From the NCBI GenBank assembly GCA_000004695.1, contig CM000151.3:288001-352000 (forward strand): 64,000 nt of DNA, in the 5' to 3' direction. The notes below the pieces were generated by a model. It was not told the DNA's origin. It made no database searches and worked only from the letters and a program-made list of their open reading frames with translations. A program made the position numbers and the translations under genes. This document shows, piece after piece, positions 2,453-38,746 of this stretch; positions within the stretch are counted from its first letter, which is position 1; the number at the start of each line of letters is the position of its first letter. This DNA is from Dictyostelium discoideum. Lineage: Eukaryota.

Positions 2453-3224
2453 AAAATAAAAAATAAAAAATAAAAAAAAAAACAAAAAAAAATATTTCTA
2501 ATATTAATACATGTATGCATAGAGTTTTTATTCTAACATTCAATTTTTGTTTTTGGCGAAGTGTTAAATTAAAATACTTATAGGCTATCTCTTTGATGAA
2601 AGGAATTGTTATCCTTCTCTTGCCAAGTTTGTTTTAATTATAATACTATTGGAATGTGAAGATAGTGATAAATTATTATATGGTAGCAGTGATTTTGGAA
2701 TATGGAGATGATGGTGATAATAAAGATTTTTGGTTGAAAAAGATGGTGAAACTTTGTGAAGTTGTTGATAGATCTTTTAAACCTAAACTTTGCATATTGG
2801 AATAGCTGATGTTATTGAACAAAATACATTACCTCTAAAACCAAATAATTATGTTTGAACCACCAAATAAACTAGTTCCAAAGCTTGAAATTGTAAATAA
2901 TAGACCACCAATTGGTTGAGTTGAATCACATAGAAATCCACCATAGTAGTTGTTGATTGATGAGCCATGAGTAAATTGGTAGATGCCAATTCGAAGATGC
3001 TCCACTAGGTGATTATTGTATTGAAGCGAACAATTCCCAAGTGATACATATCAAGCAGTTAATACATCATCAGATTCACCATTCTCTTCAGACAATTCAA
3101 TTGTTAAATCATGTTTCAGGAACATTAGATTATCAAAACTTAGGTTTATCAACATTCTATGAAATTGGTACCATTGTTTGGATTGATTCAAATAACAATG
3201 ATAAATTCGAACAACCACGTGATT

Positions 3225-3884
3225 GTCCCATGCCAAAATTATCATATTAATTTCAGCAGCCATATTAATTTTGGCATGGGACTTATGTCTGCCAAAATTA
3301 CCGTATTAATTTCAGCATGTACATAGCAGCCAAAATTAATAAGGTAATTTTGGCATAGAAAAAAAAAAAAGTCAAAGTCATTTAATTAATAATCATCTCA
3401 AATATAAACAAAATTTTAGTACTAAAATTATTATTATTATTTTTATTATAATAATTATAATAAAAAAAAAAAAAAAAAAATTTCATATTATTTTATTTAT
3501 ATCTTTTATTTATTTTTATCTTTTTATTTTTATTATTAATTTTATAATTTATTTTCATTTCTTTTTTTTAGTTGATGTATATTTTTTTATTATTCATTTA
3601 TGTCTACGTTCTAATAAAAAAAATATACACAAAAAAAAAAAAAATTAAAAATAAAAAAAAAAATAAATTGAAGGCACTCATATACTGTCTTCCCAAATAA
3701 CATGTTTTTCAATGTTTTTATACAAATCAGAATTATTTTAAAATAAATTTATGGGATTCTTTTTTTTGTTAATCAAGCAAAATAACGCAGGTATCTCAAT
3801 CAGTCACTTTTCTAAATATTAATTTTTTATTATTAAATCATTATATAATTAAATTAATTAAAATAATTAAAAAAAAAATAAAAA

Positions 3885-3920
<36 letters not shown>

Positions 3921-4420
3921 GAATGAAATGGAATAAAATAAATTAAAAAAAAGAAATACAGAAATTAAAGAAACTTATTTCGAAATTGTTTAAACAATCA
4001 TACAGTTTAAAATTAAATAAATTGTTTTAAACCACCACTTTTTTTGAACACATGAAAATAAATAAGAAATAAAAATAAAAAGATAAAAAAAGATTTGTTT
4101 TTATTTTTTTTTATTTTATAATTATTCTTGTCGTCAGTATTGTTACTATTAATTAATCCCATGAGTTTTTTATTATTATTATTTTTAATTCTTTTATATT
4201 TGAGATGATTATTATTAATTAAATGACTTTGAGTTTTTTTTTTTATTTTTCTATGCCCAAAATTACCATATTAATTTCAGCCTAAAATAGGTGGTCTGTG
4301 CATGCCAAAATTAATATGGCTGCTGAAATTAATATGGTAATTCTAGCAGACATAAGTCCCATGCCAAAATTATCATATTAATTTCAGCAGCCATATTAAT
4401 TTTGGCATGGGACACGTGAT
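3225..4420. mobile_element. MITE-like non-autonomous element (P element family) with complex palindromic termini
   Basis: The same 58-bp palindrome GTCCCATGCCAAAATTATCATATTAATTTCAGCAGCCATATTAATTTTGGCATGGGAC sits at both ends (3225-3282 and 4366-4420). Subterminal modules (CTCAAATATAAA..AATGACTTTGA..CTATGCC) are in inverted orientation at 3340-3420 versus 4190-4265. The interior is AT-rich and non-coding. Related ends occur at 11760-11885, 19690-20155, 45890-46030, 60020-60500 and 61930-62215. Confidence 0.6.
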
Positions 4421-4740
4421 ATCGGAAAATCACATGCATCAATTACATTAACCAACAATGGCAATGGTGAAACATCAACAATTCCAACAGATGTTGATGG
4501 AGCAGTAGTGGTTGATGATTACAAATTTTTATCCGTTAATTGTGGTTATAAAGTGTTTTTAATTTCAAATATTATATATAAAAAAAATAAAATTTTAAAA
4601 AAAACCAATTTGTAAAATACATTATAAAAAACAAATAATAATTATGTAACTATATGTAAAATAAACTTTTCAAATAAATAATATTAAAAATTATAGAAAG
4701 AAATTTTTAAGTTATCAATTTTCATTATTTTTTTTTTTAC

Positions 4741-4920
4741 TGAATTTGGTGTACACAGGATCATAGGTTCCCCCGTCATTTTTTGAAAATGGGGCACATC
4801 CCCTTAAAATAAAAAACTAAATGCTAAAAGTTATCTATTTTTATATCTAATTTCGAATTAATATTATCGAGGAAATCTGTGAATGCTAATCTAACCAACA
4901 GATACCTGCTTTTTCATTTC
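4741..4920 (+). repeat. Dispersed repeat with conserved hairpin core GGTGNACACAGGATCATAGGTTCCCCGTCATTTTTTGAAAATGGGG
   Basis: Near-identical copies at 5551-5700, 37795-37915 and 50555-50640 (reverse), plus a fragment at 11590-11620. Always next to Ser/Thr-rich coding-like repeat segments. Confidence 0.6.
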
Positions 4921-6213: not shown

Positions 6214-6764
6214 CTGAAGTTGAATTAATTTTTATCACTTTTAAAACCGAATTCTCGACGTCTCCAAGAATATAAGAACAATAATTCAATATTGTTACAT
6301 TATGTTGTTGAAACATTTACACCTCTACCCCGTGCATATGTATCATTATTATTTGATATTGCAATTGAATGATTAACAATTAAAATGAAAACCAAAAAAA
6401 AAAAAAAAATTGGAAATTGGTAATGTTTCTACTGTAAAAAAAAAAATTAAAAAAAAAAATTAAAAAAAAAAAAAATAAAAAAAAAAATAAATAATTTTAG
6501 AAGCTATTATTATTTATTTATTTATTTATGTATTTATTTTTTTTTTATTTTTTTTATATATTTATCTTTTTAATTATTTTTTTGACAAATAATTGAGAAT
6601 GAAAACTAGAATTATTACCAATCTAATTTATTTCTTAATTTTTTTTTTTTTTGATTTTTCTTTTTTTTTTGATATTTTTCAAAAATTTTTTTTTAAAATA
6701 TATAAATGAGATATTTTAAAACATATCATTTATCAGACACTCTTTATAATTTAAACAAATAATA

Positions 6765-8618
6765 ATGTCAACAAATAAAAAAATAAAAACAGATAATAAT
6801 AATAAAATATTTCAAGATATTATTGATTTTGAAATTTTAAAATCTATAATCGATTATTTATTAACCAGCAAAAAAAATAAAAATAATAATAATATTAATA
6901 ATAATCAATATATAATTAAAAAATTTTATTTATATAGAGATGAAATATTAAATTATATATTAGTTTCAAAAAAGTGGTATAATTTTATATCATTTACAAT
7001 ATCAAATAATATTATTAATAATAAACTATTTGAACATTGGTTAAAAACTAATTTTAGTAATAATTCATTTATTGAAAATTATAATAATCAAAATCAATAT
7101 GATAAAAATAATTTAATTTATAATAACATAGAAGATAAACAATATAAAATTAGTTTTAATAAAGAATTTTCAATTATAAAAATCAAAGAATCAATAATCA
7201 ATGATTATTTTAAATTCAATTTATTTTTAGATCATTTTACGATTGACGATGATTTTAAAGAAATTAAAAATAAATTTGAAAAAAATCAATTACTTTATCA
7301 TAGAATTGTAGTTAGTGTTGATACTGATAATTATGGGTTTCCTAGTGATATTTTATTTACAATACATGAATATGTATCAAATGAAAATTCAGAAATCATA
7401 TCAAATTTATTTAAAATATTAGAATTAAATTTTGATTTTTGGTTGGATTACGGATATTGTCCACGTTCTGAAGAGGAGGATGATGAAGGTAATAAAAAAT
7501 GTAGAGAAATATATTTAAATAATTTATCAATTGCTGGTTATAATAGAGAAGTAGGTGAAGATGAAGAAACATTAAAGATATTCAAAATTTTCAAAAGTAA
7601 AAATATAATTTATGATGGATCCAATATTGATGAAAGTGATACTCCAACACATATCGATTATTCAACATTATTCGATCCAGATAATTCAGGTCAACAAGTT
7701 GAATCAATTAAAGTAAAAAATGAATATGGTAATGAAGCACGTCATTTAATCAAACTTAATCAATTTAAAAATTTACATTCAATTACAATACCAATTAATT
7801 CATTTCAAATATTATCAAACTTATCTGAAGAAATGGGATTTTGTAAGTTATATCGTACGATATATTCAGGTGATTCAGATAATATGAAATCAGAATTAAA
7901 TCAAATGATTAATTCATTCATTACAAATAAATCTTTAAAGTATTTAAATATATCATCTGTAAATTCAATATACACTCTTCCAATTAAAAATTATGATGGA
8001 GGTTATCATGAAATTTTTTTTAATAAAATAAATAAAACTATAGAATCATATTCAAATTCATTTAAACCATTATTTTCAGAATTAAATACATCGATTGAAA
8101 GAATTGAATTTGATTGTATGGGTTTATTAAATAATAAATCAATTAAATATTTATATTTATATGATAGTGATTTCATTGTTTATTCATCAAAACAAAAAGG
8201 TAATGTTAGTGGTATTCGATTACATAAAGAACATATTTCAATTAATCAATATTTATTTGATAATATATTTTCATCACCATTAACATCAATTAGACATTAT
8301 AAAATTAAATTCATAGAATTAAATCAAATCAAATTCTTATTTAATTTAATATTAAATAATATTTTTAAATTACAATTATATTCATTAATATTTGAATTCA
8401 ATGATAGCGAATTAATTGGTGAATTTGTTAAAGAATTTAAAAACTTAATAAATAATATTTCAACACAAGAACAACAAAAATCAAATAACATAAATTTAAA
8501 AGAAATTAAGATTAAAATTCAAGATGTTAATATTGATAAATATATTCAAGAATTAAATAATATTAACAATCCATATTTTACAACAATAATAAAGAAAAAA
8601 GCTAATAATGATGATTAA
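6765..8618 (+). CDS. Paralog-array family member 2 (617 aa, intact)
   Basis: Same architecture and motifs as 473..2452. The conserved leader ...CTCTTTATAATTTAAACAAATAATAATG is present upstream. Confidence 0.75.
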   Translation: MSTNKKIKTDNNNKIFQDIIDFEILKSIIDYLLTSKKNKNNNNINNNQYIIKKFYLYRDEILNYILVSKKWYNFISFTISNNIINNKLFEHWLKTNFSNNSFIENYNNQNQYDKNNLIYNNIEDKQYKISFNKEFSIIKIKESIINDYFKFNLFLDHFTIDDDFKEIKNKFEKNQLLYHRIVVSVDTDNYGFPSDILFTIHEYVSNENSEIISNLFKILELNFDFWLDYGYCPRSEEEDDEGNKKCREIYLNNLSIAGYNREVGEDEETLKIFKIFKSKNIIYDGSNIDESDTPTHIDYSTLFDPDNSGQQVESIKVKNEYGNEARHLIKLNQFKNLHSITIPINSFQILSNLSEEMGFCKLYRTIYSGDSDNMKSELNQMINSFITNKSLKYLNISSVNSIYTLPIKNYDGGYHEIFFNKINKTIESYSNSFKPLFSELNTSIERIEFDCMGLLNNKSIKYLYLYDSDFIVYSSKQKGNVSGIRLHKEHISINQYLFDNIFSSPLTSIRHYKIKFIELNQIKFLFNLILNNIFKLQLYSLIFEFNDSELIGEFVKEFKNLINNISTQEQQKSNNINLKEIKIKIQDVNIDKYIQELNNINNPYFTTIIKKKANNDD

Positions 8619-9223
8619 AAAAAATTATCTATATCTAAATTATTCATTTTTCATCCAACTATTTATTTTTTTTTTATTTTTTTTTTTTCAAGTTTTATTT
8701 GGATAAAATTAAATAAAATATTTTTTTTATTTATTTTTTTTTTTTTAGTTTCAAACTGTCACACCTGAATAAAAAAAATAAATGAAAAAACCCTCCCTCT
8801 TTATAATTTTTACAAATAATAATAATATCAACAAATTAAACAGACAATTATAATTTACAAAAAAAAAAAAAAAAAAAAAAAAAAATGGAAAAAAGAAAAC
8901 ATTTTTTTTTTTTAATTATTTCTAATTATTTTTAGAATTTAAACACTTTTATACACCTTATTATATTTTAAAATTTAAATTATTTAAAATGAGTGAATTA
9001 GGGGCAAAAAACGAAAAAAAAAAAAGAATTTCTTGCATAAAAAATATCTTTCTCAAATTTTTTTTTTTTTTTTTTATTTTATTTCATTTTTATTTTTATT
9101 TTATTTTTTATTTTATTTCATTTTATTTTTTTTTCCCAAAAAAAACCTTGTTTGAACCAAACAAATACTGTAACACACAAAAAAAAAAAATTGTAAACAT
9201 CTTTAATGGGTGCGACCATAAAT

Positions 9224-9662: not shown

Positions 9663-11516
9663 ATGTCAACAAATAAAAAAATAAAAACAGATAATAATAA
9701 AAAAATATTTCAAGATATTATTGATTTTGAAATTTTAAGATCAATAATTAATTATTTATTAATCAGCAAAAAAAATAAAAATAATAATAATAATACTAGT
9801 AATCAATATAAAATTAATAAATTTTATTTAAATAGAGATGAAATATTAAATTATATATTAGTTTCAAAAAAGTGGTATAATTTTATATCATTAACAATAT
9901 CAAATAGTATTATTAATAATAAATTATTTGAACATTGGTTAAAAATTAATTATAATAATAAATCATTTATTGAAAATTTTAATAATCAAAATCAATATGA
10001 TAAAAATAATTTAATTTCTAAAAACAAAAAATATAAACAAAATAAAATTAGTTTTAATAAAGAGTTTTCAATTATAAAAATCAAAGAATCAATAATCAAT
10101 GATTATTTTAAATTCAATTTTTTTTTAGATTATATTACAATTGATGATTTTAAAGAAATTAAAAATAAATTTGAAAATAATCAATTACTTTATAATAGAA
10201 TTGTAGTTAATGGTAGTTATGAAGGGGAAGTTTTATTTGGAATACATGAATATTTATCAAATGAAAATTCAGGAGTTATTTTAAATTTATTTAAAATATT
10301 AGAATTAAATCATGCTTTTAATTTATATTATAAACCAAAATCTGAAGAGAAGGATGAGGAGGATGGTCATGATGATAAAGGTAATAAGAAATGTACTGAA
10401 ATATATTTAAATAGTTTATCAGTTTTTGGTTTTGATGAAGGTGAGGGTGAAGTTCAAACATTAAAGATATTCAAAGTTTTCAAAGGTAAAAATTTAGTTT
10501 ATGATGGATCTGAAGAAGATCCTGATTTTCAAACACATATCAATTACTCTGCATTATTTGATCCAGATAGCTCAGGTCAACAAGTTGAATCGATTCAAGT
10601 ACAAAATAAATATGATAATGAAGAGTCAGTCGAAGCACGTCATTTAATCAAAGTTAATCAATTTAAAAATTTACATTCAATTATAATACCAATTAATTCA
10701 TTTCAAATATTATCAAACTTATCTAAAGAAATGGGATTTATTAGTTCCCATGGTTATGAAGAATATTCAGGAAATTCAGAAAATATGAAATCAGAATTAA
10801 ATCAAATGATCAATTCAATCGTTACAAGTAAATCTTTAAAGAATTTAAAAATAACATCTGTAAATTCAATATATTATCCAATTGATTACAAAGCTTTTTA
10901 TGATGGTGATCTTGAAACCCTTACTAATAAAGTAAATGAAACTATAGAATCATTTTCAAATTCATTTAAACCATTATTTTCAGAATTAAATACATCAATT
11001 GAAAGAATTGAATTTGATTGTATGGGTTTATTAAATATCAATACATTTTCAAATTTATTAAATAATAAATCAATTAAATATTTATATTTATATAATAGTG
11101 ATTTCATTGTTTTTTCACCTAAAAAAAGAGGTGGTCCATTTCATAGAGAACCTATTTCAATTAATCAATATTTATTTGATAATATATTTTCATCACCATT
11201 AACATCAATTAGACATTATAAAATTAAATTCATAAAATCAAATGAATTAAAATTCATATTTAATTTAATATTAAATAATATTTTTAAATTACAATTATAT
11301 TCATTAATATTTGAATTCAATGAAAACGAATTAATTGGTGAATTTTTTAAAGAATATAAAAATTTAAAAAATAATATTTCAACACAACAACAAAAATCAA
11401 ATAACATAAATTTAAAAGAAATTAAAATTAAAATTAAAGATGATGAATATATTCAAGAATTAAATAATATTAATATTCCATATTTCACCACAACATTAAT
11501 AAAGAAAATAACCTAA
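9663..11516 (+). CDS. Paralog-array family member 3 (617 aa, intact)
   Basis: Paralog with the same N-terminal F-box-like motif, ALFDPDSSGQQVESIQV core and IPYFTTTLIKKIT end. Conserved leader upstream. Confidence 0.75.
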   Translation: MSTNKKIKTDNNKKIFQDIIDFEILRSIINYLLISKKNKNNNNNTSNQYKINKFYLNRDEILNYILVSKKWYNFISLTISNSIINNKLFEHWLKINYNNKSFIENFNNQNQYDKNNLISKNKKYKQNKISFNKEFSIIKIKESIINDYFKFNFFLDYITIDDFKEIKNKFENNQLLYNRIVVNGSYEGEVLFGIHEYLSNENSGVILNLFKILELNHAFNLYYKPKSEEKDEEDGHDDKGNKKCTEIYLNSLSVFGFDEGEGEVQTLKIFKVFKGKNLVYDGSEEDPDFQTHINYSALFDPDSSGQQVESIQVQNKYDNEESVEARHLIKVNQFKNLHSIIIPINSFQILSNLSKEMGFISSHGYEEYSGNSENMKSELNQMINSIVTSKSLKNLKITSVNSIYYPIDYKAFYDGDLETLTNKVNETIESFSNSFKPLFSELNTSIERIEFDCMGLLNINTFSNLLNNKSIKYLYLYNSDFIVFSPKKRGGPFHREPISINQYLFDNIFSSPLTSIRHYKIKFIKSNELKFIFNLILNNIFKLQLYSLIFEFNENELIGEFFKEYKNLKNNISTQQQKSNNINLKEIKIKIKDDEYIQELNNINIPYFTTTLIKKIT

Positions 11517-11759
11517 AATTTAGGTGGTGTAATAGTTGAACGTGATGACATCGTGTAAAGGGGATCGTTGGCATAATAACCTACTAAATTTGGTGAACAC
11601 AGGATCATAGGTTTACTATAAACAAACATATAAAGAAATAAAAGATAAAAATAAAATGATATAAGATTTTTTTTTTTTTTTTTTTTTTTATTATTATTAT
11701 TATTGTAATAAAAAAAAAATAATAATTTTAGTACTAAAATTTTTTTAGTAATTTTAGTA

Positions 11760-11885
11760 ACAGTTAATTAATCCCATGAGTTTCTATTTGTTTATATTTG
11801 AGATGATTATTAATTAAATGACTTTGACTTTTTTCTTTTTTCTATGCCAAAATTACCATATTAATTTCAGCATATACATAGCTGC
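11760..11885 (+). repeat. Solo end fragment of the palindromic-end MITE family
   Basis: TTAATTAATCCCATGAGTTT..ATTTGAGATGATTATTAATTAAATGACTTTGA..CTATGCCAAAATTACCATATTAATTTCAGC matches the 4110-4290 terminus. No partner end nearby. Confidence 0.5.
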
Positions 11886-11936
11886 CAATGTGGTGTTCAA
11901 TTCATTCTAGATAATTTAAATAGTAACTATTATTAA

Positions 11937-12050
11937 CTATTTCTTTATTACTGTTGTGAAATATGGAATATTAATATTATTTATTTCTTGAATATATTCA
12001 TTATCATTAGTTTCAATTTTAATTTCTTTTAAAGTAATGTTATTTGATTT

Positions 12051-12126
<76 letters not shown>

Positions 12127-13916
12127 ATTGAAATATTATTTATTAAATTTTTAAATTCTTTAACAAAATCACAAACTAATTCGTTTTTATTGAATTCAAA
12201 TATTAATGAATATAATTGTAATTTAAAAATATTATTTAATATTAAATTAAATATGAATTTTAATTGATTTAATTCATTCAATTTAATTTTATAATGTCTA
12301 ATTGATGTTAATGGTGATGAAAATATATTATCAAATAAATATTGATTAATTGAAATAGGTTCTTGATGTAATTCATTACCGCTATAACTTGGTTTTGAAG
12401 AGTAAACAATGAAATCACTACCATATAAATATAAATATTTAATTGATTTATTATTTAATAAATTTGAAAATGTATTGATATTTAATAAACCACAACAATC
12501 AAATTCAATTCTTTCAATTGATGTATTTAATTCTGAAAATAATGGTTTAAATGAATTTGAAAATGATTCTATAGTTTCGTTTATTTTATTAGCAAAAATT
12601 TCATGATCAGCTCCCTTACAATCACGATAATATAAACCTTCATAATCAATTGGAGAATATTTTGAACTTACTGATGAGATATTTAAATTCTTTAAAGATT
12701 TACTTGTAATAAATGAATTGATCATTTGATTTAATTCTGTATTAATATTTTCAGAGTTACCCGATTCTGATTTACTATTATAAAATCTAATAAATCCCAT
12801 ATCCTCAGATAAGTTTGATAATATTTGAAAAGAGCTAATTGGTATTGTAATTGAATGTAAATTTTCAAATTGATTAACTTTGGCTAAATGGAGAGGTTCA
12901 ACAAATTCATCATTATCAGGTTCAATTTGTACTTTAATTGATTCAACTTGTTGACCTGAATTATCTGGATCAAATAATGCTGAATAATTGACATGTGTAG
13001 GCATATCACTACAAGTATCAGATCCATCATAAAATATATTTCTACCTTTGAAAATTTTGAATATCTTTACTGTTTCTTCATCATTACCTACTTCTCCATC
13101 AAAACCTGCAATTGATAAATTATTTAAATATAATTCAGTACATTTCTTACCACCTTTATCAGTATCATGATCACCTTCCTCCTCTTCAGAGTTTGGGCTA
13201 TAACCATTATCCAAACAAAAATCAATATTTAATTCTAATATTTTAAATAATTTTGATATGACTTCTGAATTTTCATTTGATACATATTCATGTATTCTAA
13301 ATAAAGTTGTTTTATTATTATTACTATCATAATCAGCATCAACATTAACTACAATTCTATTATAAAGTAATTGATTATTTTCAAATTTATTTTTAATTTC
13401 TTTAAAATCATCAATTGTAATCTTATATAAAAATAAATTGATTTTAAAATAATCATTGATTATTGATTCTTTGATTTTTATAATTGAAAACTCTTTATTA
13501 AAACTAATTTTATTTTGTTGATAATTATAATCTTCATCTTTAAAAATTAAATTATTTTTATCATATTGATTTTGATTATTATAATTTTCAATAAATGATT
13601 TATTTTTATTATTATAATTAATTTTTAACCAATGTTCAAATAATTTATTATCAATAATATTATTTGATATTGTTAATGATATAAAATTATACCACTTTTT
13701 TGAAACTAATATATAATTTAATATTTCATTTCTATAAAAATAAAATTTATTAATTTTATATATATTAATAGTATTATTATTTAAATTATTATTTTTATTT
13801 TTATTTTTTTTGCTAGTTAATAAATAGTTGATTATAGATTTTAAAATTTCAAAATCAATAATATCTTGAAATATTTTATTGTTATTATTTGTTTTTATTT
13901 TTTTACTTGTTGACAT
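11937..13916 (-). CDS. Paralog-array family member 4 (659 aa, intact), the only inverted copy; carries a (CAA)n-encoded polyQ tract of about 26 Q
   Basis: Intact ORF on the minus strand with the family motifs. A (TTG)n/(CAA)n microsatellite at 12050-12125 encodes QQQ...Q just before the C-terminal SNNITLKEIKI motif. Confidence 0.75.
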
Positions 13917-15319: not shown

Positions 15320-15444
15320 TTAATAGAAACACTTTATCGATTATAAATAAAAATATTAAAATAACTAAAGATAAAAATGAAAATTTATAAAAAAAATTTA
15401 AATAATCATAAATAAAAGATAAAAATAAAAAGATATAAAAAAGA

Positions 15445-15475
<31 letters not shown>

Positions 15476-15583
15476 ATTCTTGTCATCAGTATTGTTACTA
15501 TAATTAATCCATGAGTTTTTTAATTATTGAATTTATATTTGAGAGATTATTATTTAAATGACTAAGAATTTTTTATTTTTTTT

Positions 15584-16540
15584 TTACTTACTATCATTAT
15601 AATCAGTAGCAGTATAGTTTATTGGGTCATCTAGCATTGATTTTAATCTATTATTATCTAATTTTCCTTCAAAATTTTCAATTTCTTGAATTGTTGTCGG
15701 AACTGATTCTAAAGATACTTTTAATAATATTATTGAAGTTGAAACTTGTTCTTTTTCTTTTTCTTTTTCTGATTCAGTTAATATCTTTAATTTTATTATT
15801 AATTTACAAGTGGTAATTAATCTTTTTAATGTTGATCTTTCATTAACCTGATATATAGTTTTGAGGTTTTTAATTATTAGATCAATTGTTAATTTACTAT
15901 TATTACAACTACTACTATTATTATTATTATTATTATCATTACCAATGTTATTTAAATAACATAATAATCCTTTAAAAATATTATCATTTTTTGGAATTTC
16001 ATCTAACTCGATTGATTTCTCACCAAAATCAGTGTTATTTAATGATGTTTCTAATGATGTTGATGATGGTGAGTTTGATTTTTTTAATTCTAAATTCTTT
16101 GATTGTATTATTGCAGTTGATACATAAATTGGTGAAGAGTAATAATACCTTTGAATTTTGAAAAAGTTTCTATTAAATTTGAAATCATTTTTAATTATTT
16201 CAAATAATTTCTTTAAATAAATTAAAATTAAATCTTTACGCCAACTAGATTGATCAGACTCTTTACGCCAACAAGTTTCACCAAATTCTAAATATCTACA
16301 ATTTCTATAAGCTTTTTCTTTTAAAATACTAATTTGATTTGAATCTATTAGTTTAGTTATTGACGATACTGAATCGTAACTAAATGAATATTGGTTATAC
16401 ATAAATGAGAATATCTTTTTATAAATTGCTTTATTTCTAAACAATTTCCAAAATAATATTTCAATTGGTTCTATATTATCTGTAATTGTTAATTTTATTG
16501 AATGAATTAGTATTTTCTTTTCGTTCATGTTCTTCTTCAT
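15584..16540 (-). CDS. ORF1-family protein (318 aa), intact short copy; transposon-associated, function unknown
   Basis: Intact ORF MKKNMNEKKILIHSIKLTITDNIEPIEILFWKLFRNKAIYKKIFSFM.... An identical N-terminal 150 aa occurs in the longer degenerate copy at 55222..57782. Family fragments at 58300-58400 and 63450-64000. Bounded downstream by a truncated palindromic-MITE terminus (15470-15580). Confidence 0.6.
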   Translation of the reverse strand: MKKNMNEKKILIHSIKLTITDNIEPIEILFWKLFRNKAIYKKIFSFMYNQYSFSYDSVSSITKLIDSNQISILKEKAYRNCRYLEFGETCWRKESDQSSWRKDLILIYLKKLFEIIKNDFKFNRNFFKIQRYYYSSPIYVSTAIIQSKNLELKKSNSPSSTSLETSLNNTDFGEKSIELDEIPKNDNIFKGLLCYLNNIGNDNNNNNNSSSCNNSKLTIDLIIKNLKTIYQVNERSTLKRLITTCKLIIKLKILTESEKEKEKEQVSTSIILLKVSLESVPTTIQEIENFEGKLDNNRLKSMLDDPINYTATDYNDSK

Positions 16541-17424
16541 ATTCTCTTTTTCTTTTTTTTTACAATTTTAATCCTTTCAATTATTTCTTGTTTATTTAAG
16601 TGATTTATTTCTATACAATATGATTTTGCAATTTCTTTAATTGATTTTAAATTCTTTTTCTCTAATTCACAATTATTATCATTATCTTTATCATCTTATT
16701 AATTAAAGATGACAAAAATAATTTAAATATATAAATTATTTTTCATTGTTGTGGTGGTGGGGGAAATTAAAAAATAAAAAAAAAAAAATATAAAAAAATA
16801 TAAAAAAAAATATAAAAAAAAAAATAAAAAAAAAAAAAAACAAATAAAAAACATTTTTATGGTGAAACGGATTTTATTTAGTTTTTTTTTTTTTTTTTTT
16901 TTTTTTCTATTTTATTTTTTTTTTTTACTATTTTATTAAATATTTATATTTAAAAAAAAAAAAAAAAAAAACATATAAAAAACATTTTGTAACACTTAAA
17001 AAAAAAAAAAAAAAAAAAAAAATTCAGCGACTCTATTATGGTTTTAAAAAAAAAATGGTAAGTCATAAATATTCACTTAAAATAAACAAAAGTTTTACAA
17101 TCTTTATTATGATATACTAATATTAATTTTAGAAAAAAAAAAAAAAAAAAAAAAATTTTAGTTTAGATTAAAAAATTTTAAAAATAAAGGAATTAAATGT
17201 TATTGAAAATTAAATAAAATTAAATTTATTTATTTATTTATTTATTTATTTATTTGTTTATTTATTTTTTATTTATTTAATGGAATTCCGTTTATATATT
17301 TTTTTTTAATGAAATTTCATTAATTTTTTTTCAATGAAATTTCAAACAAAGAAATAAGCAAATATATATTATTTGTTTATTTCTTTGTTTGAAATTTCGT
17401 TGAACATTATTTTTAAACGAATTC

Positions 17425-17550
17425 AAATGACTACATAACCCCTGTAAGCGGTTAGTATCCCCTTGTAATCCTTACAACCAGTGTAGCCCACAAATCCGGC
17501 CATTCGTCTTACAGGCCTATTAGCCGCTTACAGGGGTTACGTAGTCATTT
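17425..17550. repeat. GC-rich (about 55% GC) 126-bp palindromic element: 27-bp inverted repeats around a 71-bp core with three CTTACAGG motifs
   Basis: AAATGACTACATAACCCCTGTAAGCGG ... CCGCTTACAGGGGTTACGTAGTCATTTT. A second copy in inverse orientation lies at 54262-54400 with 5 substitutions, none compensatory. It stands out sharply in AT-rich surroundings. Confidence 0.55.
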
Positions 17551-18086
17551 TGCTCGTTGGGGGTGTAATTAATATTTATTTATATTTTTATTATGGGCTA
17601 ATTCTTTTTTTATTATTTAATGATAATTTTATATTAAAATATGATATATTATTAATTAATATTAATTTGTTAAAAATTTTATTATATTATAATCTCTTTA
17701 TAAAAAGTGAGAAATTATGTGTCATAAAATATCTAATAAAATAATGAATTTTCTAAAATTTTTTTTTCCAGCGAATAATAAAAAAAAAAAAACTGTTTTT
17801 GTTAACAATGGGGTGAAGATGATTTATTGTAATTTTTTAATAATTTTAGTTCTGTTTTTTTTTTAATGGAGATATGAGAGAGATTATTATGATATTTTGA
17901 ATGATTGGATCATAGTAATAAAACAATATTTTTAATTTTTTTCTTTTTTTTTTTTCTTTTCATTCTTTTTTTTTTTCTTTTCATTCTTTTTTTTTAGTAC
18001 TTAATCTTTTTTTTTTTCATCTTTCAAAATAAAAAAAAAATATTTATATAAATTTTAACTTTAAATTAAAATAAATAAATTTTAGA

Positions 18087-18509
18087 ATGGCTGAAGAATA
18101 TCATCAATTGAAAATTACAATATTTACTGATAAAGGGAGATCAACAATAAGTGGTTTTGGTAAGTTAATTAGAATTATTAATTTATAAATATTTAATTTT
18201 AGTTTATATATTAAAAAATGTAACATTTAATTTCATTCTTCTGGCTTTTTTAAAAATATAGAGTATCCTCAACCTATATTACCTTATCCTGCACCATATA
18301 CTTTTAGATTTTTTCATTACGATATTGAAGGCCCAAATTTAACCAACAAAGAATTTAAAGTAAAAACAGGTAAAATTGAATACAAAGGAGAAGAATTTGA
18401 TATTCCTCCATCATCTAAGGGCTCATGGAGAAGAGAAGATAACCTATTCGATTTAATCTCTGTTACAATATATCCAAGTAGACAACCAAAAAAAGTTTTT
18501 CATTATTAG
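18087..18509 (+). CDS. Small two-exon gene (about 106 aa), hypothetical protein. Exon 1 is 18087..18159, intron 18160..18261, exon 2 18262..18509
   Basis: ATG..GGTTTTG|GTAAGTT donor and TATAG|AG acceptor. The spliced frame gives MAEEYHQLKITIFTDKGRSTISGFEYPQPILPYPAPYTFRFFHYDIEGPNLTNKEFKVKTGKIEYKGEEFDIPPSSKGSWRREDNLFDLISVTIYPSRQPKKVFHY*. A diverged paralog with the same exon/intron structure lies at 53330..53751 (-). Confidence 0.6.
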
Positions 18510-18766
18510 ATCTTAAAAACAGATCTGAAACAATGAAAACAAAAATAAAAAATTTTAAAATTTTTTCATAATTGAATTGATATAAAAAAAAAATTATGAT
18601 TAAAAAAAAAATATGTGTGGAAAAAAAAAAAAATTAAAAATAAAAAATATATTTGTTTATGGTGTTATGTTTTTTGGTAAGGTTTAAAGTGATCAAAAAA
18701 TTATCATTCAAACTTGTATACCAGTGTTCGACCTTTTTCCACATTTGGAAAAAAAGGGTGTCTTTT

Positions 18767-19420
18767 TTAATTTCCCTTCCATTCCATGTTTTTGTTTGAT
18801 TGAGTTGTGATTCCACCATTATTGGAAGTTGTTGCAGCTTCATGTGTTGATCTAACTTCGGTGGTAGAGTGCTCGATTGCTTTTCCAACTAGGTCATCTG
18901 TTGATTTTCTTTTGGTTATTTCGATATCCCTTTGCAATTTATTTTTACTTGAGAGTTTGGTGGCCTCTATTCTAGAAGTAGGCTCAGTATTGTAATAAGC
19001 CTTTATAATAGCAGAATGATTATCTGCTTTATAATGATTACTGATGTGCTGTTGACACTGGTTTTGATTAATCATATGAGAGACACCATCTTCATCTTTG
19101 TTAAGCCTAACCTTCTCTATAATCTTCACTAAGTCTTTTGGGTACCAATTTTTTCTTTTTATCTTTATCAATATAAAACACTTCTTTAATAGTTGCCGTA
19201 CCATATTCTACATTCTCAACAACATACTGTTTATCCAAAATGTTTTTCCAATAGCTTATATTTTGTCCACTCAATTTGGTATTATGAAATTTATAATCTA
19301 TTTTAAATTTTACATCTTCGTCATATTTTTCCAAGAGTTTTTTTAATTTATTTTTATTATTTTTTCAATTTCTGTTGCAGAAAGTTGATTATTTAATTTA
19401 TTGTCTTTACTGAAGACCAT
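18767..19420 (-). pseudogene. ORF-T: repeat-associated coding region split across two overlapping frames (19107..19334 and 18767..19204); probable transposon ORF with a frameshift
   Basis: The MEKYDEDVKFKIDYKFHNTKLSGQ...LVPKRLSEDYREG frame ends where the frame-shifted MVRQLLKK...RLNKDEDGVSHM...EATTSNNGGITTQSNKN frame is already open. A third upstream segment (MVFSKDNKLNNQLSATEIEKIIKIN*) needs another +1 shift. A mirror copy at 60955..61697 (+) has the same frame breaks. Confidence 0.4.
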
Positions 19421-19620
19421 TTTTTGGAACGAAAACTTTAAAAAAATAAAAAAATAAAAAAAAAAATACTTTTTTTTTTTAATTTTTTTTTTTATATTTT
19501 TTTTTTTATATTTTTTTTTTTTAAATTTTTTTTTTTAATTTTTTTTTTTTATTTTATTTTTTTAAAGTTTCGAACAATTATATATAAAAAAAAAGTAAAA
19601 GATATCCCTTCGGTTAATTA

Positions 19621-19689
<69 letters not shown>

Positions 19690-19698
<9 letters not shown>

Positions 19699-20155
19699 TT
19701 CGAAATGTTTAAACAATCATACAGTTTAAAATTAAATAAATTGTTTTAAACCACCACTTTTTTTGAACACATGAAAATAAATAAGATATAAAAATAATAA
19801 GATAAAAAAAGATTTTTTTTTTTTTTTTTTTTTATTTTATAATTATTCTTGTCGTCAGTATTGTTACTATAATTAATCCCATGAGTTTTTTTTATTATTA
19901 TTTTTAATTCTTTTATATTTGAGATGATTATTATTAATTAAATGACTTTGAGTTTTTTTTTTTATTTTTCTATGCCCAAAATTACCATATTAATTTCAGC
20001 AGCCATATTAATTTCAGCCTAAAATAGTTGGTCTGTGCATGCCAAAATTAATATGGCTGCTGAAATTAATATGGTAATTCTAGCAGACATAAGTCCCATG
20101 CCAAAATTACCATATTAATTTCAGCAGCCATATTAATTTTGGCATGGGACACACA
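19690..20155 (+). repeat. Terminus of the palindromic-end MITE family, capping the 15.4-20.2 kb duplicated block
   Basis: Matches the 3955-4420 subterminal and terminal sequence, including the double palindrome ...CCATATTAATTTCAGCAGCCATATTAATTTCAGC...GTCCCATGCCAAAATTACCATATTAATTTCAGCAGCCATATTAATTTTGGCATGGGAC. Preceded by (AAT)n at 19621-19690. Confidence 0.55.
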
Positions 20156-21489: not shown

Positions 21490-23472
21490 ATGTCAACAAA
21501 AAAAAAAATTAAAACAGATAATAATAATAAAATATTTCAAGATTTTATTGATTTTGAAATTTTAAGATCTTTAATCAATTATTTATTAATCAACAAAACA
21601 AATAATAATAATAATAATAATAATAAATATAAAATTAGTAAATTTTATTTACATAGAAATGAAATATTGAATTATATATTAGTTTCAAAAAAGTGGTATA
21701 ATTTTATATCATTAACAATATCAAATAATATTATTAATAATAAATCATTTGAACATTGGTTAAAAATTAATAATAATAATAATAATAAATCATTTACTAA
21801 AAATTATAATAATCAAAATCGATATGATAAAAATAATTTAATTTTTAATAACAAATATAGTAAAAATAAAATTGGTTTTAATAAAGAATTTTCAATTATA
21901 AAAATCAAAGAATCAATAATCAAAGATTATTTTAAATTCAATTTATTTTTAAGTAATATTACAATTGATGATTTTAAAGAAATTAAAAATAAATTTGAAA
22001 ATAATCAATTAGTTTATAATAGAATTGTTGTTGATATTAAAACTGGCTATTATGGTGAAGGGAATCAAGATGAAATTTTATTTAAAATACATGAATATGT
22101 ATCAAATGAAAATTCAGAAATCATATCAAATTTATTTAAAATATTAGAATTAAATCATGATTTTATGATAATCGATGACTTTCATCCAAAATCTAAAGAA
22201 GAGGATGAAGAGGATGAGGAGGATGATGAAAATGATAAAGGTAGTAAGAAATGTACTGAAATATATTTAAATAATTTATTGGTTTCCGGTTATGATCTAA
22301 CTATGGATGAGGATGAAGATAGAGAATCATTAAAGATATTCAAAATATTTAAAAGTAAAAATATATTTTATGATGGGTCTGGTATTGCTAGTGATATTCC
22401 AACACATGTCAATTATTCAGCATTGTTTGATCCTGATAATTCAGGTCAACAAGTTGAATCGATTAAAGTAAAAAATGAACTTGAAGATCCTGATTTTGTA
22501 GAACCACTCCATTTAATCAAAGTTAATCAATTTAAAAATTTACATTCAATTACAATACCAATTAATTCATTTCAAATATTATCAAACTTATCCGAAGAAA
22601 TGGGATATTTTAGTATCGATTGTTTTAAATCTGGTTTTGGTCTTTCAGATAATATGAAATCAGAATTAAATCAAATGATCAATTCATTCATTACAAGTAA
22701 ATCTTTAAAAAATTTAAAAATAACATCTATTAGTACAAAAGAAGATCCAATTGATTATGATGCTTATTATGATGAAGGTGATCTTCAAACTTTTATGAAT
22801 CAAATAAATGAACCTAAAGAATCATTTTCAAATTGTTTCAAACCATTATTTTCAGAATTAAATACATCAATTGAAAGAATTGAATTTGATTGTTGCGGTT
22901 TATTAAATATCAATACATTTTCAAATTTATTAAATAATAAATCAATTAAATATTTATATTTATATGATAGTGATTTCTTTTTTTCTTCATTAAAAACAAG
23001 TGATGGTGGTAGTGATGATTGTGGTATTGATGATGATGGTGGTAGTGATGATTGTGGTATTGATGATGATGGTGGTAGTGATGATTGTGATGCATATCAA
23101 AAAATTATTTCCATTAATCAATATCTATTTGAAAATATATTTTCATCACCATTAACATCAATTAGACATTACAGAATTAAATTCAAAGAATTAGATGAAT
23201 TAAAATTCATATTTAATTTAATATTAAATAATATTTTTAAATTACAATTATATTCATTAATATTTGAATTCAATGAAAACGAATTAGTTTATGAATTTGT
23301 TAAAGAATTTAAAAATTTAATAAATAATATTTCAATACAAGAACAACAACAACAACAACAAAAATCAAACAACATAAATTTAAAAGAAATTAAAATTATA
23401 ATAAATGATGACTGTTTAGAAGAATTAAATAATCCATATTTCAAAACAACAATAAAGAATAGCCCATATTAA
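21490..23472 (+). CDS. Paralog-array family member 5 (660 aa, intact); contains an internal 3x (DDCGIDDDGGSD) tandem expansion
   Basis: Intact ORF with the family motifs. A 39-nt unit is repeated three times at 22990-23100 inside the variable region that precedes the conserved ISINQYLF motif. Confidence 0.75.
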   Translation: MSTKKKIKTDNNNKIFQDFIDFEILRSLINYLLINKTNNNNNNNNKYKISKFYLHRNEILNYILVSKKWYNFISLTISNNIINNKSFEHWLKINNNNNNKSFTKNYNNQNRYDKNNLIFNNKYSKNKIGFNKEFSIIKIKESIIKDYFKFNLFLSNITIDDFKEIKNKFENNQLVYNRIVVDIKTGYYGEGNQDEILFKIHEYVSNENSEIISNLFKILELNHDFMIIDDFHPKSKEEDEEDEEDDENDKGSKKCTEIYLNNLLVSGYDLTMDEDEDRESLKIFKIFKSKNIFYDGSGIASDIPTHVNYSALFDPDNSGQQVESIKVKNELEDPDFVEPLHLIKVNQFKNLHSITIPINSFQILSNLSEEMGYFSIDCFKSGFGLSDNMKSELNQMINSFITSKSLKNLKITSISTKEDPIDYDAYYDEGDLQTFMNQINEPKESFSNCFKPLFSELNTSIERIEFDCCGLLNINTFSNLLNNKSIKYLYLYDSDFFFSSLKTSDGGSDDCGIDDDGGSDDCGIDDDGGSDDCDAYQKIISINQYLFENIFSSPLTSIRHYRIKFKELDELKFIFNLILNNIFKLQLYSLIFEFNENELVYEFVKEFKNLINNISIQEQQQQQQKSNNINLKEIKIIINDDCLEELNNPYFKTTIKNSPY

Positions 23473-23625: not shown

Positions 23626-23895
23626 TTTTTTTTTTTTATATAAATAAATAATTTACCTTTTGATTTGGAAATATAATTTATTTTATTTTGTTTGTTGTAG
23701 GGAATTTTCCATAAAATTTCACTACAGTAGCGTAGTGAATTTTATTATTTAATTTCACTACAGTAGCGTAGTGAAAAAAAAAAATCACTGACCTTAAATT
23801 TTTTTTTTTTTCAAAAAACAAATAAAGTTTATTAAATTGAAATTTTATTTTTTGTTTTAATTATTATTTTATTTATTTTTATTATAATTATTGTT

Positions 23896-23935
<40 letters not shown>

Positions 23936-24076
23936 CAATTTTTTTTTTTTAAATTTTTTTCAATTTTTATTTGTTTATTAAATTGTAATTTTATTTTTTG
24001 TTTTAATTATTATTTTATTTATTATTATTGTTAATTTTTTTTTTTTTTCAATTTTTTTTTTTTTAATTTATTTTTA

Positions 24077-24385
24077 TTAATTTATTTTTATTAACTCCCT
24101 GAGTTGTTCAATTGCTTGATTTACCATATCACTGTAAACACTGCACACAATTGAATTTTTTCTAGCTTTGTTACCTCTGGTGCATTTGATGTTTTTGCAT
24201 TTTCCTTTGTATACAAAAAAGTCCAAATATAATTCGTTTTCTATTACAGTTTTTACACAATGTTGGTGAAATTGTTTTGATTTTAATTCTAATGCTTCTA
24301 ACATCATATTTGGATTTTTAACGATTAAAGCATCACCACTATTTACATATAGTACTTTGGCTGCTTTTTCGAGGAATTTAGTCAA
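24077..24385 (-). CDS. Hypothetical ORF (102 aa) inside the Tdd-4-like element
   Basis: Open frame LEKAAKVLYVNSGDALIVKNPNMMLEALELKSKQFHQHCVKTVIENELYLDFFVYKGKCKNIKCTRGNKARK.... A possible short upstream exon at 24386-24480. No recognisable domain. Confidence 0.3.
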   Translation of the reverse strand: MTKFLEKAAKVLYVNSGDALIVKNPNMMLEALELKSKQFHQHCVKTVIENELYLDFFVYKGKCKNIKCTRGNKARKNSIVCSVYSDMVNQAIEQLRELIKIN

Positions 24386-24842
24386 ATTTTCCTCTGAATC
24401 TAACTATTCTTCATTGCCATATTCAATGGCTAAATTTCTTAAGAGTTTTATCGAATCTATTAATTCTTCGATCATTCTTTTTTTTTGAAATTTTTTTTTA
24501 TTTTGTTTTTTCAATTTTTTTTTTTTATTTTGTTTTTTCAATTTTTTTTAAGTTTTATTTTTTTTTATTTTTTTTTATTTTTTTTAACAAATGTAATTTT
24601 TTTTTATTTTTTTCAATTTTTTTTTTTTTTTAATTTTTAATTTTTTTTTTTTTTTTTAATTTTTTGTGTTGATTTGTGTTTTTTTTGTTTTTTTGATTTG
24701 GCCACTTGTTTTTATTTTCTAATTTCCCCATACCCCCTTCTATTAATTGCAACCAAATCAAGTTCTAATTTTTGTGTCCTTGTTAACTTTGTTTTTGCAA
24801 CTTTTTTTGAAGGTATCACATTAACGATTTTTCCTATTGATG

Positions 24843-25042
24843 GTGATTTGGAAGGTGATTTAAATGGTGATTTAAAAGGTGAATTGGAAGGTGATTTAAA
24901 TGGTGAATTGGAAGGTGAAATGGATGGTGATTTGGAAGGTGATTTAAATGGTGATTTGGAAGGTGATTTTAATGGTGATTTAAATGGTGAATTGGAAGGT
25001 GAAATGGATGGTGATTTGAGAGGTGATTTGGATGGTTTAGAA
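24843..25042. repeat. 15-bp tandem repeat (GGTGATTTRRAWGGT, about 13 units); possible subterminal transposase-binding repeats
   Basis: Direct tandem units in the DNA. Translates in the + frame to GDLEGDLNGDLKGELEG..., but more likely non-coding. Its reverse complement carries the AAATCACC motif that is also tandemly repeated inside the R elements. Confidence 0.5.
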
Positions 25043-26121
25043 TGTGATTTTAAAGGAGGTTTATTAACAATTGGTAGGACGGGAGGACGGCCTCTGAACA
25101 GTTGTTACTATACCACTATACCATTACCAGATTGTGGTATAGTATACGATGGTATTATTTGCACTTGAGGTAACTATTTCTTTTAATCTTTTAAATTCAT
25201 ATCCTTTCTCAAACAATTCATTAAATTTGGCGCTGTTAGATTATTATTTAAAAATGGGAGTATTTCTTCTTGTTCCATTTCATTATTGAGTTTGTGTTGA
25301 AATGGATTATCGTTAATGATAGGTGGAATATTTGATGGATTGTTAATAGCATCTTCCAAAACCCTAAATGGATCATTTTGTGTTACCAATTGATGCAAGT
25401 TGAAATTGGATAAATCCTTACCAAGATTTTTAATAAACTGAACCAAAAATTCAATAACTTTCCCATCATTATTTAAATAAAGACCAGAAGTAAAAGAATC
25501 AATATCTTTTTGTATGTTTGGCGATGTTCTAAAAATATCAACTGTTGATTGTTTATAAAGAACCAACTTGTTACCTCCTACAAAACCAGAGTATAAACCT
25601 TTTTTTTGAAGGCTATTGATTCCATCTTCCAAAAATTCAAGTTTATAAAGTTGTTTAGTGTCTTCCTGTATTACCTTATGAATTTTACACAAAATCAATA
25701 TTTTCTATTAGAATTAAATATAAAATTTGTTAATTATTACTGTTTCATATATTATTAATCTTTATGTTTTAATTACTTACATTATTTTTTTTAATTTCTA
25801 GAAAGAGTACAGTATCACCAACTTTCAATCCCTTTGGTGGTTTTGAATTCCATTGATTTTGGTAACTTGTGAGATTTTCAAGAATAATAGCTGTTCTTTC
25901 TTCTTTTGAAACATCTGAAACACCAATTGATTGAGAGTCTTGTTCTGATTGAACATTAATAAACAAAGGAACAATACCAACAGCTTGAGATGGTGTCATT
26001 TTAATTGTTCTTGTTTTTGTATTATTGTAATCATACAAAGCTTGTTTTAATAGTTCAGAAAGAGACCTAGAAGTACCATCAAGAAAACTAAAATTTATTT
26101 ATAAATGATTAATTAATAAAC

Positions 26122-26873
26122 ATCACAGCAAAGAAAAAACCACCTTTAAATTCGCTTTAAATTAAATTTAAATTTGCTTTAAAGTCCTGAATTAAAGCAA
26201 TTTTAAAGGTAATTTTTAAGGTTACTTTAAAATCACCTTAAAAATTACCTTTAAAATTACCTTTAAAATTACCTTTTTAATGGCTTTAAAAGCGAGGTCC
26301 TGAGTTCGAATCCGTTATTTAACGGATAAATTTTTTAAAATTTTTTTTTTAATTTTTCAAAAATTACCCAAAAGGGATTCGATCCCCCGACCCTCTATCA
26401 AAGGGTAGTCTCATCAACCATTACACCATTTGATTGCTTTGATGAAAAATTTAAAAATGATAGAATATTTTATCCCCATTTTTTTGTGCTAAAATTAGAT
26501 CTTTTTTATTAAAAATCTTAAATTTATGTTTAAAGGAAATTTAAATTCACTTTAAATCTACTTTTAATCTACTTTAAATCCTATTTAAAATTAATTTAAA
26601 ATAAATTTTAAAGGTATTTTTAAATATCTTAAAAATTATCTTAAAAATTACCTTAAAAATCACCTTTAAAATCACCTTTAAAATCACCTTTAAAATTGCT
26701 TAAAAATTTATTTTAAAGCAAATTTTAAAGGCATTTTTAAATATCTTAAAAATTACCTTAAAAATTACCTTAAAAATGAATTTTTTAAACGCGGCTTTAA
26801 ATTCAATTTAAATCCAATTTAAATCAACTTTTCTTTAAATTTGCTTTAAAGGTGCATTTTTCTTTGCTGTGAT
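26122..26873. mobile_element. R element copy 1 (about 750 bp, MITE-like) inserted in the transposase gene
   Basis: 12-bp terminal inverted repeat ATCACAGCAAAG / CTTTGCTGTGAT. Internal tandem AAATCACCTTT and AAATTACCTTT repeats. Internal tRNA-like segment with A-box and B-box. Flanked on both sides by AT. A second copy at 27678..28458 is more than 98% identical in the same orientation. An R-like fragment also lies inside a MITE at 35100-35200. Confidence 0.6.
26374..26437 (-). ncRNA. tRNA-like module inside R element (A-box TGGTGTAATGG, anticodon-arm-like ACCCT/TTGATAG/AGGGT, B-box GGATCGAATCC); lacks an acceptor stem, so a tRNA-derived / SINE-like promoter module
   Basis: The minus strand reads GCAATCAAATGGTGTAATGGTTGATGAGACTACCCTTTGATAGAGGGTCGGGGGATCGAATCCC. 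The T-arm and anticodon arm fold, but the 3' acceptor strand does not pair with the 5' end. An identical module lies in R2 at 27959..28022. Confidence 0.4.
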
Positions 26874-28458: not shown

Positions 28459-28743
28459 TCTATAATCATTAATTACTTCTAAACACACTTCTTTTGATAT
28501 ATTTCTATCTCCGCCACAATTCATGACTTTTTTTTCAATTCTAAATAATTTTTCTTTTCTGTTTCTGTTTTTTATTGGTCAGAATTTAAAAAATGATTGT
28601 GTTATTGTAAGGAAAAATATTTACTCATCATGTAAAAATTTATAATTTTTATGTTTAGTATTTTCAAAATTATTATCTTCAATAAATTTTAAATAATTTA
28701 TAATTTCATTTATTTTATCTTGTTTCATTTTGGGAAAATGAAA

Positions 28744-28778
<35 letters not shown>

Positions 28779-38440: not shown

Positions 38441-38564
38441 AAAATTTAATAAAAATAAAATATAAAAAAAAAATAAAATAAAAATTTCTAAAAGTTTGGC
38501 AAACAAAAAAAAAATAAGTTTTTTATTCAAAACATACTCTTTATAATTTTTAAAACAAATAATA

Positions 38565-38675: not shown

Positions 38676-38746
<71 letters not shown>

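Follow-up and report, generated by a model that had tools for sequence, protein, structure and literature searches.

The stretch of Dictyostelium discoideum DNA analyzed here, 64 kb of contig CM000151.3 (positions 288,001 to 352,000, hereafter the window), has a base composition of ∼20% G+C with very long runs of A or T and carries repeats of the known DNA transposon family thug, whose ends are the precursors of the microRNAs mir-7131 and miRNA_can_D3. The window belongs to chromosome 2 of strain AX4: of seven long open reading frames compared with databases, six are identical to annotated AX4 proteins (DDB_G0271214, DDB_G0271412, DDB_G0271418, DDB_G0271414, DDB_G0271172 and DDB_G0271430), the first five of which are placed on the chromosome-2 contig. 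The copies were mapped by reading the sequence and by a masked, score-filtered blastn search of the window with the copies as queries. The window contains two complete copies (A and B), one truncated copy (C) and several fragments, which are given below in window coordinates.

3224-4414, minus strand: copy A, a complete thug element of 1,191 bp without an open reading frame (ORF), inverted relative to copy B, with termini TGTCCCATGCC...GGCATGGGACA
18787-20151, minus strand: copy C, an element of the 2-kb type cut off at 18787 within the remnant ORF, with an intact right terminus
60022-62200, plus strand: copy B, a complete thug element of 2,179 bp with a remnant transposase ORF and a long (TAT)n microsatellite
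60602-60750: the (TAT)n microsatellite inside copy B, ∼150 bp
11624-11888: subterminal thug fragment that breaks off within the second hairpin, with the outermost ∼90 bp missing and 71-93% blastn matches to copy A
15408-15585: old thug subterminal fragment (84% identity) at the 3′ end of DDB_G0271414
45925-46030: degenerate run of 16-bp modules without a terminus, adjoining a truncated copy of a paralogous gene
58020-58161: old thug subterminal fragment (82% identity)

Copy C is 98.6-99.9% identical to copy B and the other 2-kb copies, and the 2-kb copies share 98.9-99.9% identity among themselves, which points to recent amplification of this form. Identity between copy A and the 2-kb copies is ∼87%, which places copy A in an older subfamily. 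The right end of copy C reads GGCATGGGACA followed by CACACT, no partner end is present, and its remnant ORF is the annotated gene DDB_G0271194 (145 amino acids). The same copy B is ∼196 bp shorter at the (TAT)n tract in assembly GCA_054883475.1 (locus L001); this tract is either length-polymorphic or was collapsed in assembly.

A first-pass annotation of this DNA had described a transposon family with nested palindromic termini built from a 16-bp module. This architecture was borne out both by the terminal and longer subterminal hairpins described below and by the module itself: CCATATTAATTTCAGC occurs 28 times in the window at ≤2 mismatches, compared with 0.09 occurrences expected from shuffled sequences, and all 28 matches fall at sites that the annotation had listed. 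Some of its details required adjustment. It placed the first element at 3225-4420, where copy A spans 3224-4414 and its right target-site duplication extends to position 4420, and it gave each end a terminal hairpin of 58 bp, which is present and measures 59 nt with a 17-bp stem. It counted six or more termini; five are genuine (3224, 4414, 20151, 60022 and 62200), and the patches at 11624-11888 and 45925-46030 are fragments without the outermost hairpin. That the family has been recombinogenic here was not demonstrated, as only copy C is truncated beside other repeated DNA (at 18787).

To the two complete copies in the window we added five from other D. discoideum assemblies (loci L002, L003, L004, L005 and L007). 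L002-L005, all from a single assembly, were retrieved through the small ORF of the 2-kb form. Copies A, B, L002, L003, L004 and L005 have identical TG...CA termini, TGTCCCATGCC...GGCATGGGACA. Each of the seven complete copies is flanked by a perfect 6-bp target-site duplication, and no two of these have the same sequence: CGTGAT, ATTAAC, CTTATT, GTTGCA, TATAAC and TATAGT for A, B and L002-L005, respectively, and TATGGA for L007, which represents a related subfamily. Because all seven duplications differ, no target motif is evident among them. The flanking sequences are unrelated between copies, and further thug copies lie on several other contigs of D. discoideum assemblies, as is the case for an interspersed repeat. 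Two other loci were left out of these counts: L006 lacks the terminal motif and was not counted as complete, and L008, from D. cf. discoideum, was not counted as intact since its thug-type ends are flanked by mismatched sequences (TTCGTC and TTTACA). The duplications in the window were read directly at the following positions.

3218-3223: left target-site duplication of copy A, CGTGAT, identical to 4415-4420
4415-4420: right target-site duplication of copy A, CGTGAT
60016-60021: left target-site duplication of copy B, ATTAAC, identical to 62201-62206
62201-62206: right target-site duplication of copy B, ATTAAC

Defined ends together with copy-specific 6-bp duplications identify the repeat as a transposon rather than a satellite. 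The proposal of a non-autonomous mobile family with hairpin-forming termini is thus upheld by the duplication check, and the outcome that had been named as speaking against it, copies without defined ends or duplications, was seen in none of the seven.

The sites of insertion were also examined by joining the flanks of each complete copy in the window.

2975-3223 joined to 4421-4613: reconstructed empty site of copy A
59825-60021 joined to 62207-62303: reconstructed empty site of copy B

Deleting 3224-4420 (copy A plus one duplication) restored an open frame of 147 codons across the junction, and the reconstructed copy B site formed an open frame of 98 codons. Since open frames in the window average 11 codons, both insertions appear to have landed in coding-like sequence. 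The reconstructed 120-amino-acid peptide at the copy A site had no homologue among 5.8 billion proteins; the sequence interrupted by copy A may be an unannotated gene or a pseudogene. Assembly GCA_054883475.1 shows all three insertions in sequence collinear with the window, a result that favors neither side on the question of recent movement.

The 2-kb form provided the link to a transposase.

60949-61697, plus strand: remnant transposase ORF of copy B, with two frameshifts; 61161-61697 is the annotated gene DDB_G0271172 (178 amino acids)

The product of DDB_G0271172, annotated as a hypothetical protein, contained no significant Pfam domain. An exhaustive profile-free search, however, matched the window ORF to proteins of 434-571 amino acids from other D. 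discoideum and D. cf. discoideum assemblies. The match covers residues ∼6-100 and the last 40-70 residues (...KKRANQLQSDADFFTKRF...), and upstream frames in copy B, with two frameshifts, prolong it to the transposase N-terminus. Between the two matched parts these relatives carry an rve core (Pfam PF00665, 51.7-60.6 bits against a cut-off of 32.6), and the D, D, 35, E triad is readable in the alignment of the full-length relatives as FDTC...CDNG...(35)...IERWN. This rve/DDE (Asp-Asp-Glu) core segment is deleted in the window copies. Because the window ORF matches only both termini of the relatives, we regard it as the remnant of a transposase gene whose catalytic middle has been deleted. The best NCBIfam matches of the thug-type core were to IS481 (75-84 bits) and IS3 (56-61 bits), and the searches found no relatives outside D. 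discoideum and D. cf. discoideum.

Two of the copies outside the window retain the core. L007 (5026-8822) is a 3,797-bp element with a 6-bp duplication, a 571-amino-acid rve gene, and 123-bp near-perfect inverted repeats that start with TGTCCCATGCCAA and contain the ATTAATTTCAGCAGCC module; its gene model has a first exon that reads through the inverted repeat. L002 (2963-12811), with window-type ends and a duplication of 6 bp, keeps the 1.77-kb rve-core segment that is absent from copy B. As judged by sequence comparison, then, the window copies are internal-deletion derivatives of an integrase-type cut-and-paste transposon that is distinct from Tdd-4. The first-pass annotation had called the family a miniature inverted-repeat transposable element (MITE), for which we took as typical a size below ∼800 bp and no coding capacity. 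The copies resemble a MITE in being non-autonomous, in their inverted repeats and duplications, and in their derivation from an autonomous element; they depart from it in size (1,191 and 1,955-2,179 bp) and in the 178-amino-acid annotated remnant ORF. As the 2-kb form keeps this remnant, "internal-deletion derivatives" is the more exact term.

The distinction from Tdd-4 required attention, because a Tdd-4-type element lies in the same window.

23693-29055, minus strand: Tdd-4-type DNA transposon with exact inverted ends TGTTGTAGGGAATTTTC and the 5-bp duplication TTGTT
26190-26811 and 27768-28396: arrays of 12-bp units within the Tdd-4-type element

ORF fragments in 23693-29055 match a Tdd-4-type integrase, including its SPXX-repeat region (tandem 12-bp coding repeats, 24804-25072). 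The Ginger2/TDD group, to which Tdd-4 and Tdd-5 belong (PMC2836005), shares with thug its cut-and-paste mode, TG...CA ends and an rve-type DDE transposase, as well as the organism. Duplications, however, are 5 bp long in Tdd-4 and Tdd-5 (PMC2836005) and 4 bp in animal Ginger2, in contrast to 6 bp in thug, and the Tdd ends TGTTGTAGGGAATTTTC have only TGT in common with those of thug. The enzymes differ as well. In pairwise comparison the thug-type and Tdd enzymes were 27% identical over 113 amino acids, and the H2C2 zinc finger and SPXX repeats of the Tdd enzyme are both missing from the thug type. The Pfam domains agree with this: Integrase_H2C2 was found in the Tdd protein P0018 and not in the thug-type proteins P0022, P0024, P0025 and P0030, which contain rve, rve_3 and rva_4.

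One AX4 gene model on chromosome 1, DDB_G0270824 (769 amino acids), fuses the thug ORF to an H2C2 and rve integrase with SPXX repeats. We rejected this protein as the thug transposase, since its C-terminal 570 amino acids correspond to a Tdd-4-type protein also found separately. L002 suggests how such a model could arise: within this thug copy is nested a Tdd element with ends of its own (TGTTGTAGGG...CCCTACAACA) and its own 5-bp duplication, TCATC, so the fusion in DDB_G0270824 is probably a similar nesting artefact. The nested Tdd element contains a 760-bp segment three times in direct orientation (4108-4868, 6299-7056 and 8108-8867) and once inverted (9977-10736).

The ends of the thug copies were then considered as folded structures. 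Each true end forms a hairpin of 59 nt with a 17-bp stem (folding free energies of −25 to −27 kcal/mol, z ∼ −5.6), next to which lie longer hairpins with stems of 35-50 bp and z of −7 to −13 (RNA and DNA parameters). With units in alternating orientation, the same sequence could adopt any of several long hairpins that exclude one another. The individual hairpins are as follows.

3224-3282: terminal hairpin, left end of copy A, 59 nt, 17-bp stem, −25.1 kcal/mol, z −5.6
3290-3355: second, subterminal hairpin, short end of copy A, −29.5 kcal/mol, z −7.2
4311-4397: mir-7131 precursor hairpin, long end of copy A, Rfam RF03716, 96.1 bits, full model length
4356-4414: terminal hairpin, right end of copy A, with 58 nt identical to 3225-3282
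20048-20134: mir-7131 precursor hairpin, copy C, Rfam RF03716, 98.9 bits
60039-60125: mir-7131 precursor hairpin, copy B, Rfam RF03716, 98.9 bits
60095-60188, minus strand: second published microRNA hairpin, miRNA_can_D3 (Meier et al. 2016), −54.7 kcal/mol, z −9.2
62142-62200: terminal hairpin, right end of copy B

The Rfam model RF03716 (mir-7131) matched one end each of copies A, B and C over its entire length (1-84 of 84) with 94.0-98.9 bits, compared with a curated gathering score of 74 bits. The window hairpins are almost identical to the model consensus, with no feature that sets them apart from the family, and all of them lie within 115 nt of an element terminus. Since the mir-7131 hairpin is a near-perfect palindrome, it scores on both strands. 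In that of copy B, one arm is the inner half of the terminal palindrome and the other is the inverted unit next to it, and the DNA fold of the whole end (60022-60205) reaches −58 kcal/mol with z −13.

The second hairpin corresponds to a published microRNA. The thug-S-derived 21-mer AUUAAUUUCGGCAGCCAUAUU matches 60164-60184 on the minus strand exactly, and its partner 23-mer UAUGGCUGCUGAAAUUAAUGUGG aligns to 60099-60121 with a single mismatch. In the fold, a 35-bp stem holds the two on opposite arms, and their start-to-start spacing is 63 nt, as in the supplementary coordinates of PMC4894637, which locates one validated RbdB-dependent microRNA pair in thug-S; microRNAs from thug-S are described as multicopy and DrnB/RbdB-dependent (PMC4894637, PMC6161686). 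The miRNA_can_D3 hairpin is a near-palindrome, so both strands would yield almost the same small RNAs. Table 2 of PMC4894637 calls the 21-mer 3p and the 23-mer 5p, labels that appear swapped relative to the coordinates in its own S4 Table; the exact window match likewise puts the 21-mer on the 5′ arm of the given strand, contrary to that table. Given the Rfam match and the published small RNA, the end structures are already catalogued as microRNA precursors.

We consider it very likely that the thug copies in the window are non-autonomous elements that move by cut-and-paste, mobilized by an rve-type transposase that a full-length family member supplies in trans, and that their palindromic ends give rise to microRNAs. 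The enzyme would be a retroviral-integrase-like (DD35E) DDE transposase of ∼570 amino acids that acts on the TG...CA ends and cuts the target with a 6-bp stagger, features that fit an enzyme of the IS481/IS3-like class. The 2-kb form would be the full-length element minus the ∼1.77 kb encoding the catalytic core, and the 1.2-kb form would have lost the entire ORF. A ∼38-bp end motif (TGTCCCATGCCAAAATTACCATATTAATTTCAGCAGCC) would have been reiterated in alternating orientation in the non-autonomous forms to give the nested palindromes; as L007 has the end motif but no terminal palindrome, the hairpins and the alternating reiteration look derived in these forms. Once transcribed, the ends would fold into hairpins with 35-50-bp stems, which the Dicer-like DrnB/RbdB machinery would cut into microRNAs of 21-23 nt (mir-7131 and miRNA_can_D3). 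The ends, the duplications, the hairpin potential, the identity of the microRNA precursors and the deletion relationship to an rve-encoding element come from the present analysis, and the existence of the small RNAs and their dependence on DrnB/RbdB come from the literature (PMC4894637, PMC6161686). Which transposase copy is active, and whether the microRNAs have any regulatory role, we can only infer.

Several observations weigh against this explanation. Neither an insertion polymorphism nor an excision footprint was found at the three window sites in the one other assembly compared, GCA_054883475.1. L002 and L007, the two rve-bearing elements examined, include no intact transposase copy with exactly window-type ends: the L002 copy is disrupted by the nested Tdd element, and the ends of L007 diverge after the first 13 nt. 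The reiterated motifs are only putative as extra transposase-binding sites. Finally, the assignment to thug draws on the small-RNA sequence in print, on the Rfam model and on secondary citations, and both size classes are named here simply thug, with neither equated with thug-S or thug-T.

Other explanations account for parts of these data. The modules are reiterated in alternating orientation, the patches at 11624-11888 and 45925-46030 are truncated or degenerate, and copy C breaks off beside repeated DNA at 18787, all of which might be expected if this were not a mobile element but a palindromic, satellite-like repeat propagated by recombination or by slippage during replication. Such a repeat would hardly have sharp ends and perfect, differing 6-bp duplications in seven of seven complete copies, unrelated flanks, and open frames that are restored when the element is removed; the duplications already refute this idea, and we give it virtually no weight. 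Mobilization by the integrase-like transposase of Tdd-4 or Tdd-5 is suggested by the Tdd-4-type element in the same window, by the DDB_G0270824 model that joins the thug ORF to a Tdd-4-type integrase, and by the TG...CA ends, TGT start and rve-type enzyme common to both families. We nevertheless judge it improbable, as the ends share nothing beyond TGT, the Tdd duplications (TTGTT, TCATC) are 5 bp instead of 6 bp, the Tdd element in L002 is a nested insertion with its own duplication and the fused model is probably of the same kind, and the thug relatives have their own transposase, only 27% identical to that of Tdd over 113 amino acids and devoid of the H2C2 zinc finger.

It might also be argued that the hairpins are primarily duplicated host microRNA genes and that their transposon-like features are secondary, given that they belong to a curated Rfam microRNA family and that DrnB/RbdB-dependent small RNAs have been published. 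However, every mir-7131 hairpin in the window lies ≤115 nt from an element terminus, the hairpin is built from the motif that also makes up the inverted repeat of the relative with the transposase gene, and this autonomous relative, L007, has the motif without a terminal palindrome. An origin as host microRNA genes therefore seems to us a poor prospect, and we favor transposon ends that came to serve as microRNA precursors.

The thug family (thug-S and thug-T) was described as a D. discoideum DNA transposon family by Glockner et al. 2001, as cited in PMC4894637, PMC6161686 and PMC5633606, and makes up ∼0.1% of the genome (PMC5633606). Compared through these citing papers, thug-S and thug-T have the organism, the interspersed DNA element, the inverted ends and the role as a multicopy microRNA source in common with the window copies, and no differing feature was found. 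The accessible parts of the literature treat thug as unclassified and without a recognizable transposase, and in them we found no statement that the small ORF is the remnant of an rve-core transposase. The rve/DDE link and the constant 6-bp duplication are additions at the level of annotation, and the original description may or may not hold both. A wider proposal, which we offer tentatively and regard as possible rather than probable, is that thug would represent a separate integrase-type lineage (rve, DD35E, IS481/IS3-like) with TG...CA ends and 6-bp duplications, apart from Ginger2/TDD, whose non-autonomous derivatives evolved multiply palindromic ends by reiteration of the end motif; these ends would later have become Dicer-dependent microRNA genes, perhaps for self-silencing.

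Several known systems resemble thug in part. Foldback (FB) elements also have long, internally repetitive, inverted termini. Their duplications are 9 bp and their sub-repeats are in tandem; the thug duplication is 6 bp and its sub-repeats alternate in orientation. A 6-bp duplication with an integrase-type enzyme is characteristic of IS3EU. GingerRoot and Maverick/Polinton elements also combine a 6-bp duplication with an rve-type DDE enzyme as thug does (PMC6839031). The ends of GingerRoot and Polinton, however, are TA...TA and AG...TC, respectively (PMC6839031), and Polintons, unlike thug, are large self-synthesizing elements. The bacterial IS481 and IS3 families share the DD35E spacing and TG...CA-type ends with the thug-type element. 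The thug-type scores, however, fall far short of the equivalog cut-offs (224 and 160, respectively), the host is a eukaryote, and the N- and C-terminal regions differ. Finally, MITE-derived microRNA genes of plants and animals are likewise inverted repeats of transposons that fold into microRNA-yielding hairpins. What distinguishes thug from these genes and from FB elements is that each single terminus is itself multiply palindromic, so that one end alone makes a precursor.

As a discovery these results have low value, since the family was already on record in 2001 and its hairpins entered microRNA catalogues in ∼2012. They do provide a clean worked example in which one transposon end alone has enough palindromy for a microRNA precursor, from an amoebozoan, a group in which the origins of microRNAs are little studied. 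The derivation of thug from an rve/DDE integrase-type element gives thug a mechanism and a probable superfamily neighborhood and may be useful for the annotation of Dictyostelium repeats. The thug and Tdd-4 findings also explain several gene models that are chimeric or spurious: DDB_G0270824, DDB_G0271172, and the 25-amino-acid "genes" that are annotated inside thug termini. Annotation oddities around these elements were noticed among the gene models of L001, L003, L004 and L007.

At least nine paralogous genes of ∼2 kb, including DDB_G0271214, DDB_G0271412, DDB_G0271418 and DDB_G0271430, are clustered in the window with DNA identities of 60-95%. A Pfam scan of two of them, DDB_G0271214 and DDB_G0271412, returned no significant domain.

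473-2452, 6765-8618, 9663-11516, 11937-13916 (minus strand), 21490-23472, 29314-31032, 35360-37456, 38544-40360 and 46485-48395: paralogous ∼2-kb genes
45119-45942: truncated paralogue copy, with its break point where the degenerate thug modules start
16078-18517 and 53322-55684: inverted segmental duplication of ∼2.4 kb, 92-98% identical
59021-59095, minus strand: tRNA-Val(AAC) gene

The segmental duplication includes DDB_G0271414 and a 152-amino-acid ORF with a weak annexin-like match. Copy C begins 270 bp from one of its two copies, and the other has no adjacent thug element. Dictyostelium TRE retrotransposons target tRNA genes, and the tRNA-Val(AAC) gene lies ∼930 bp from copy B.

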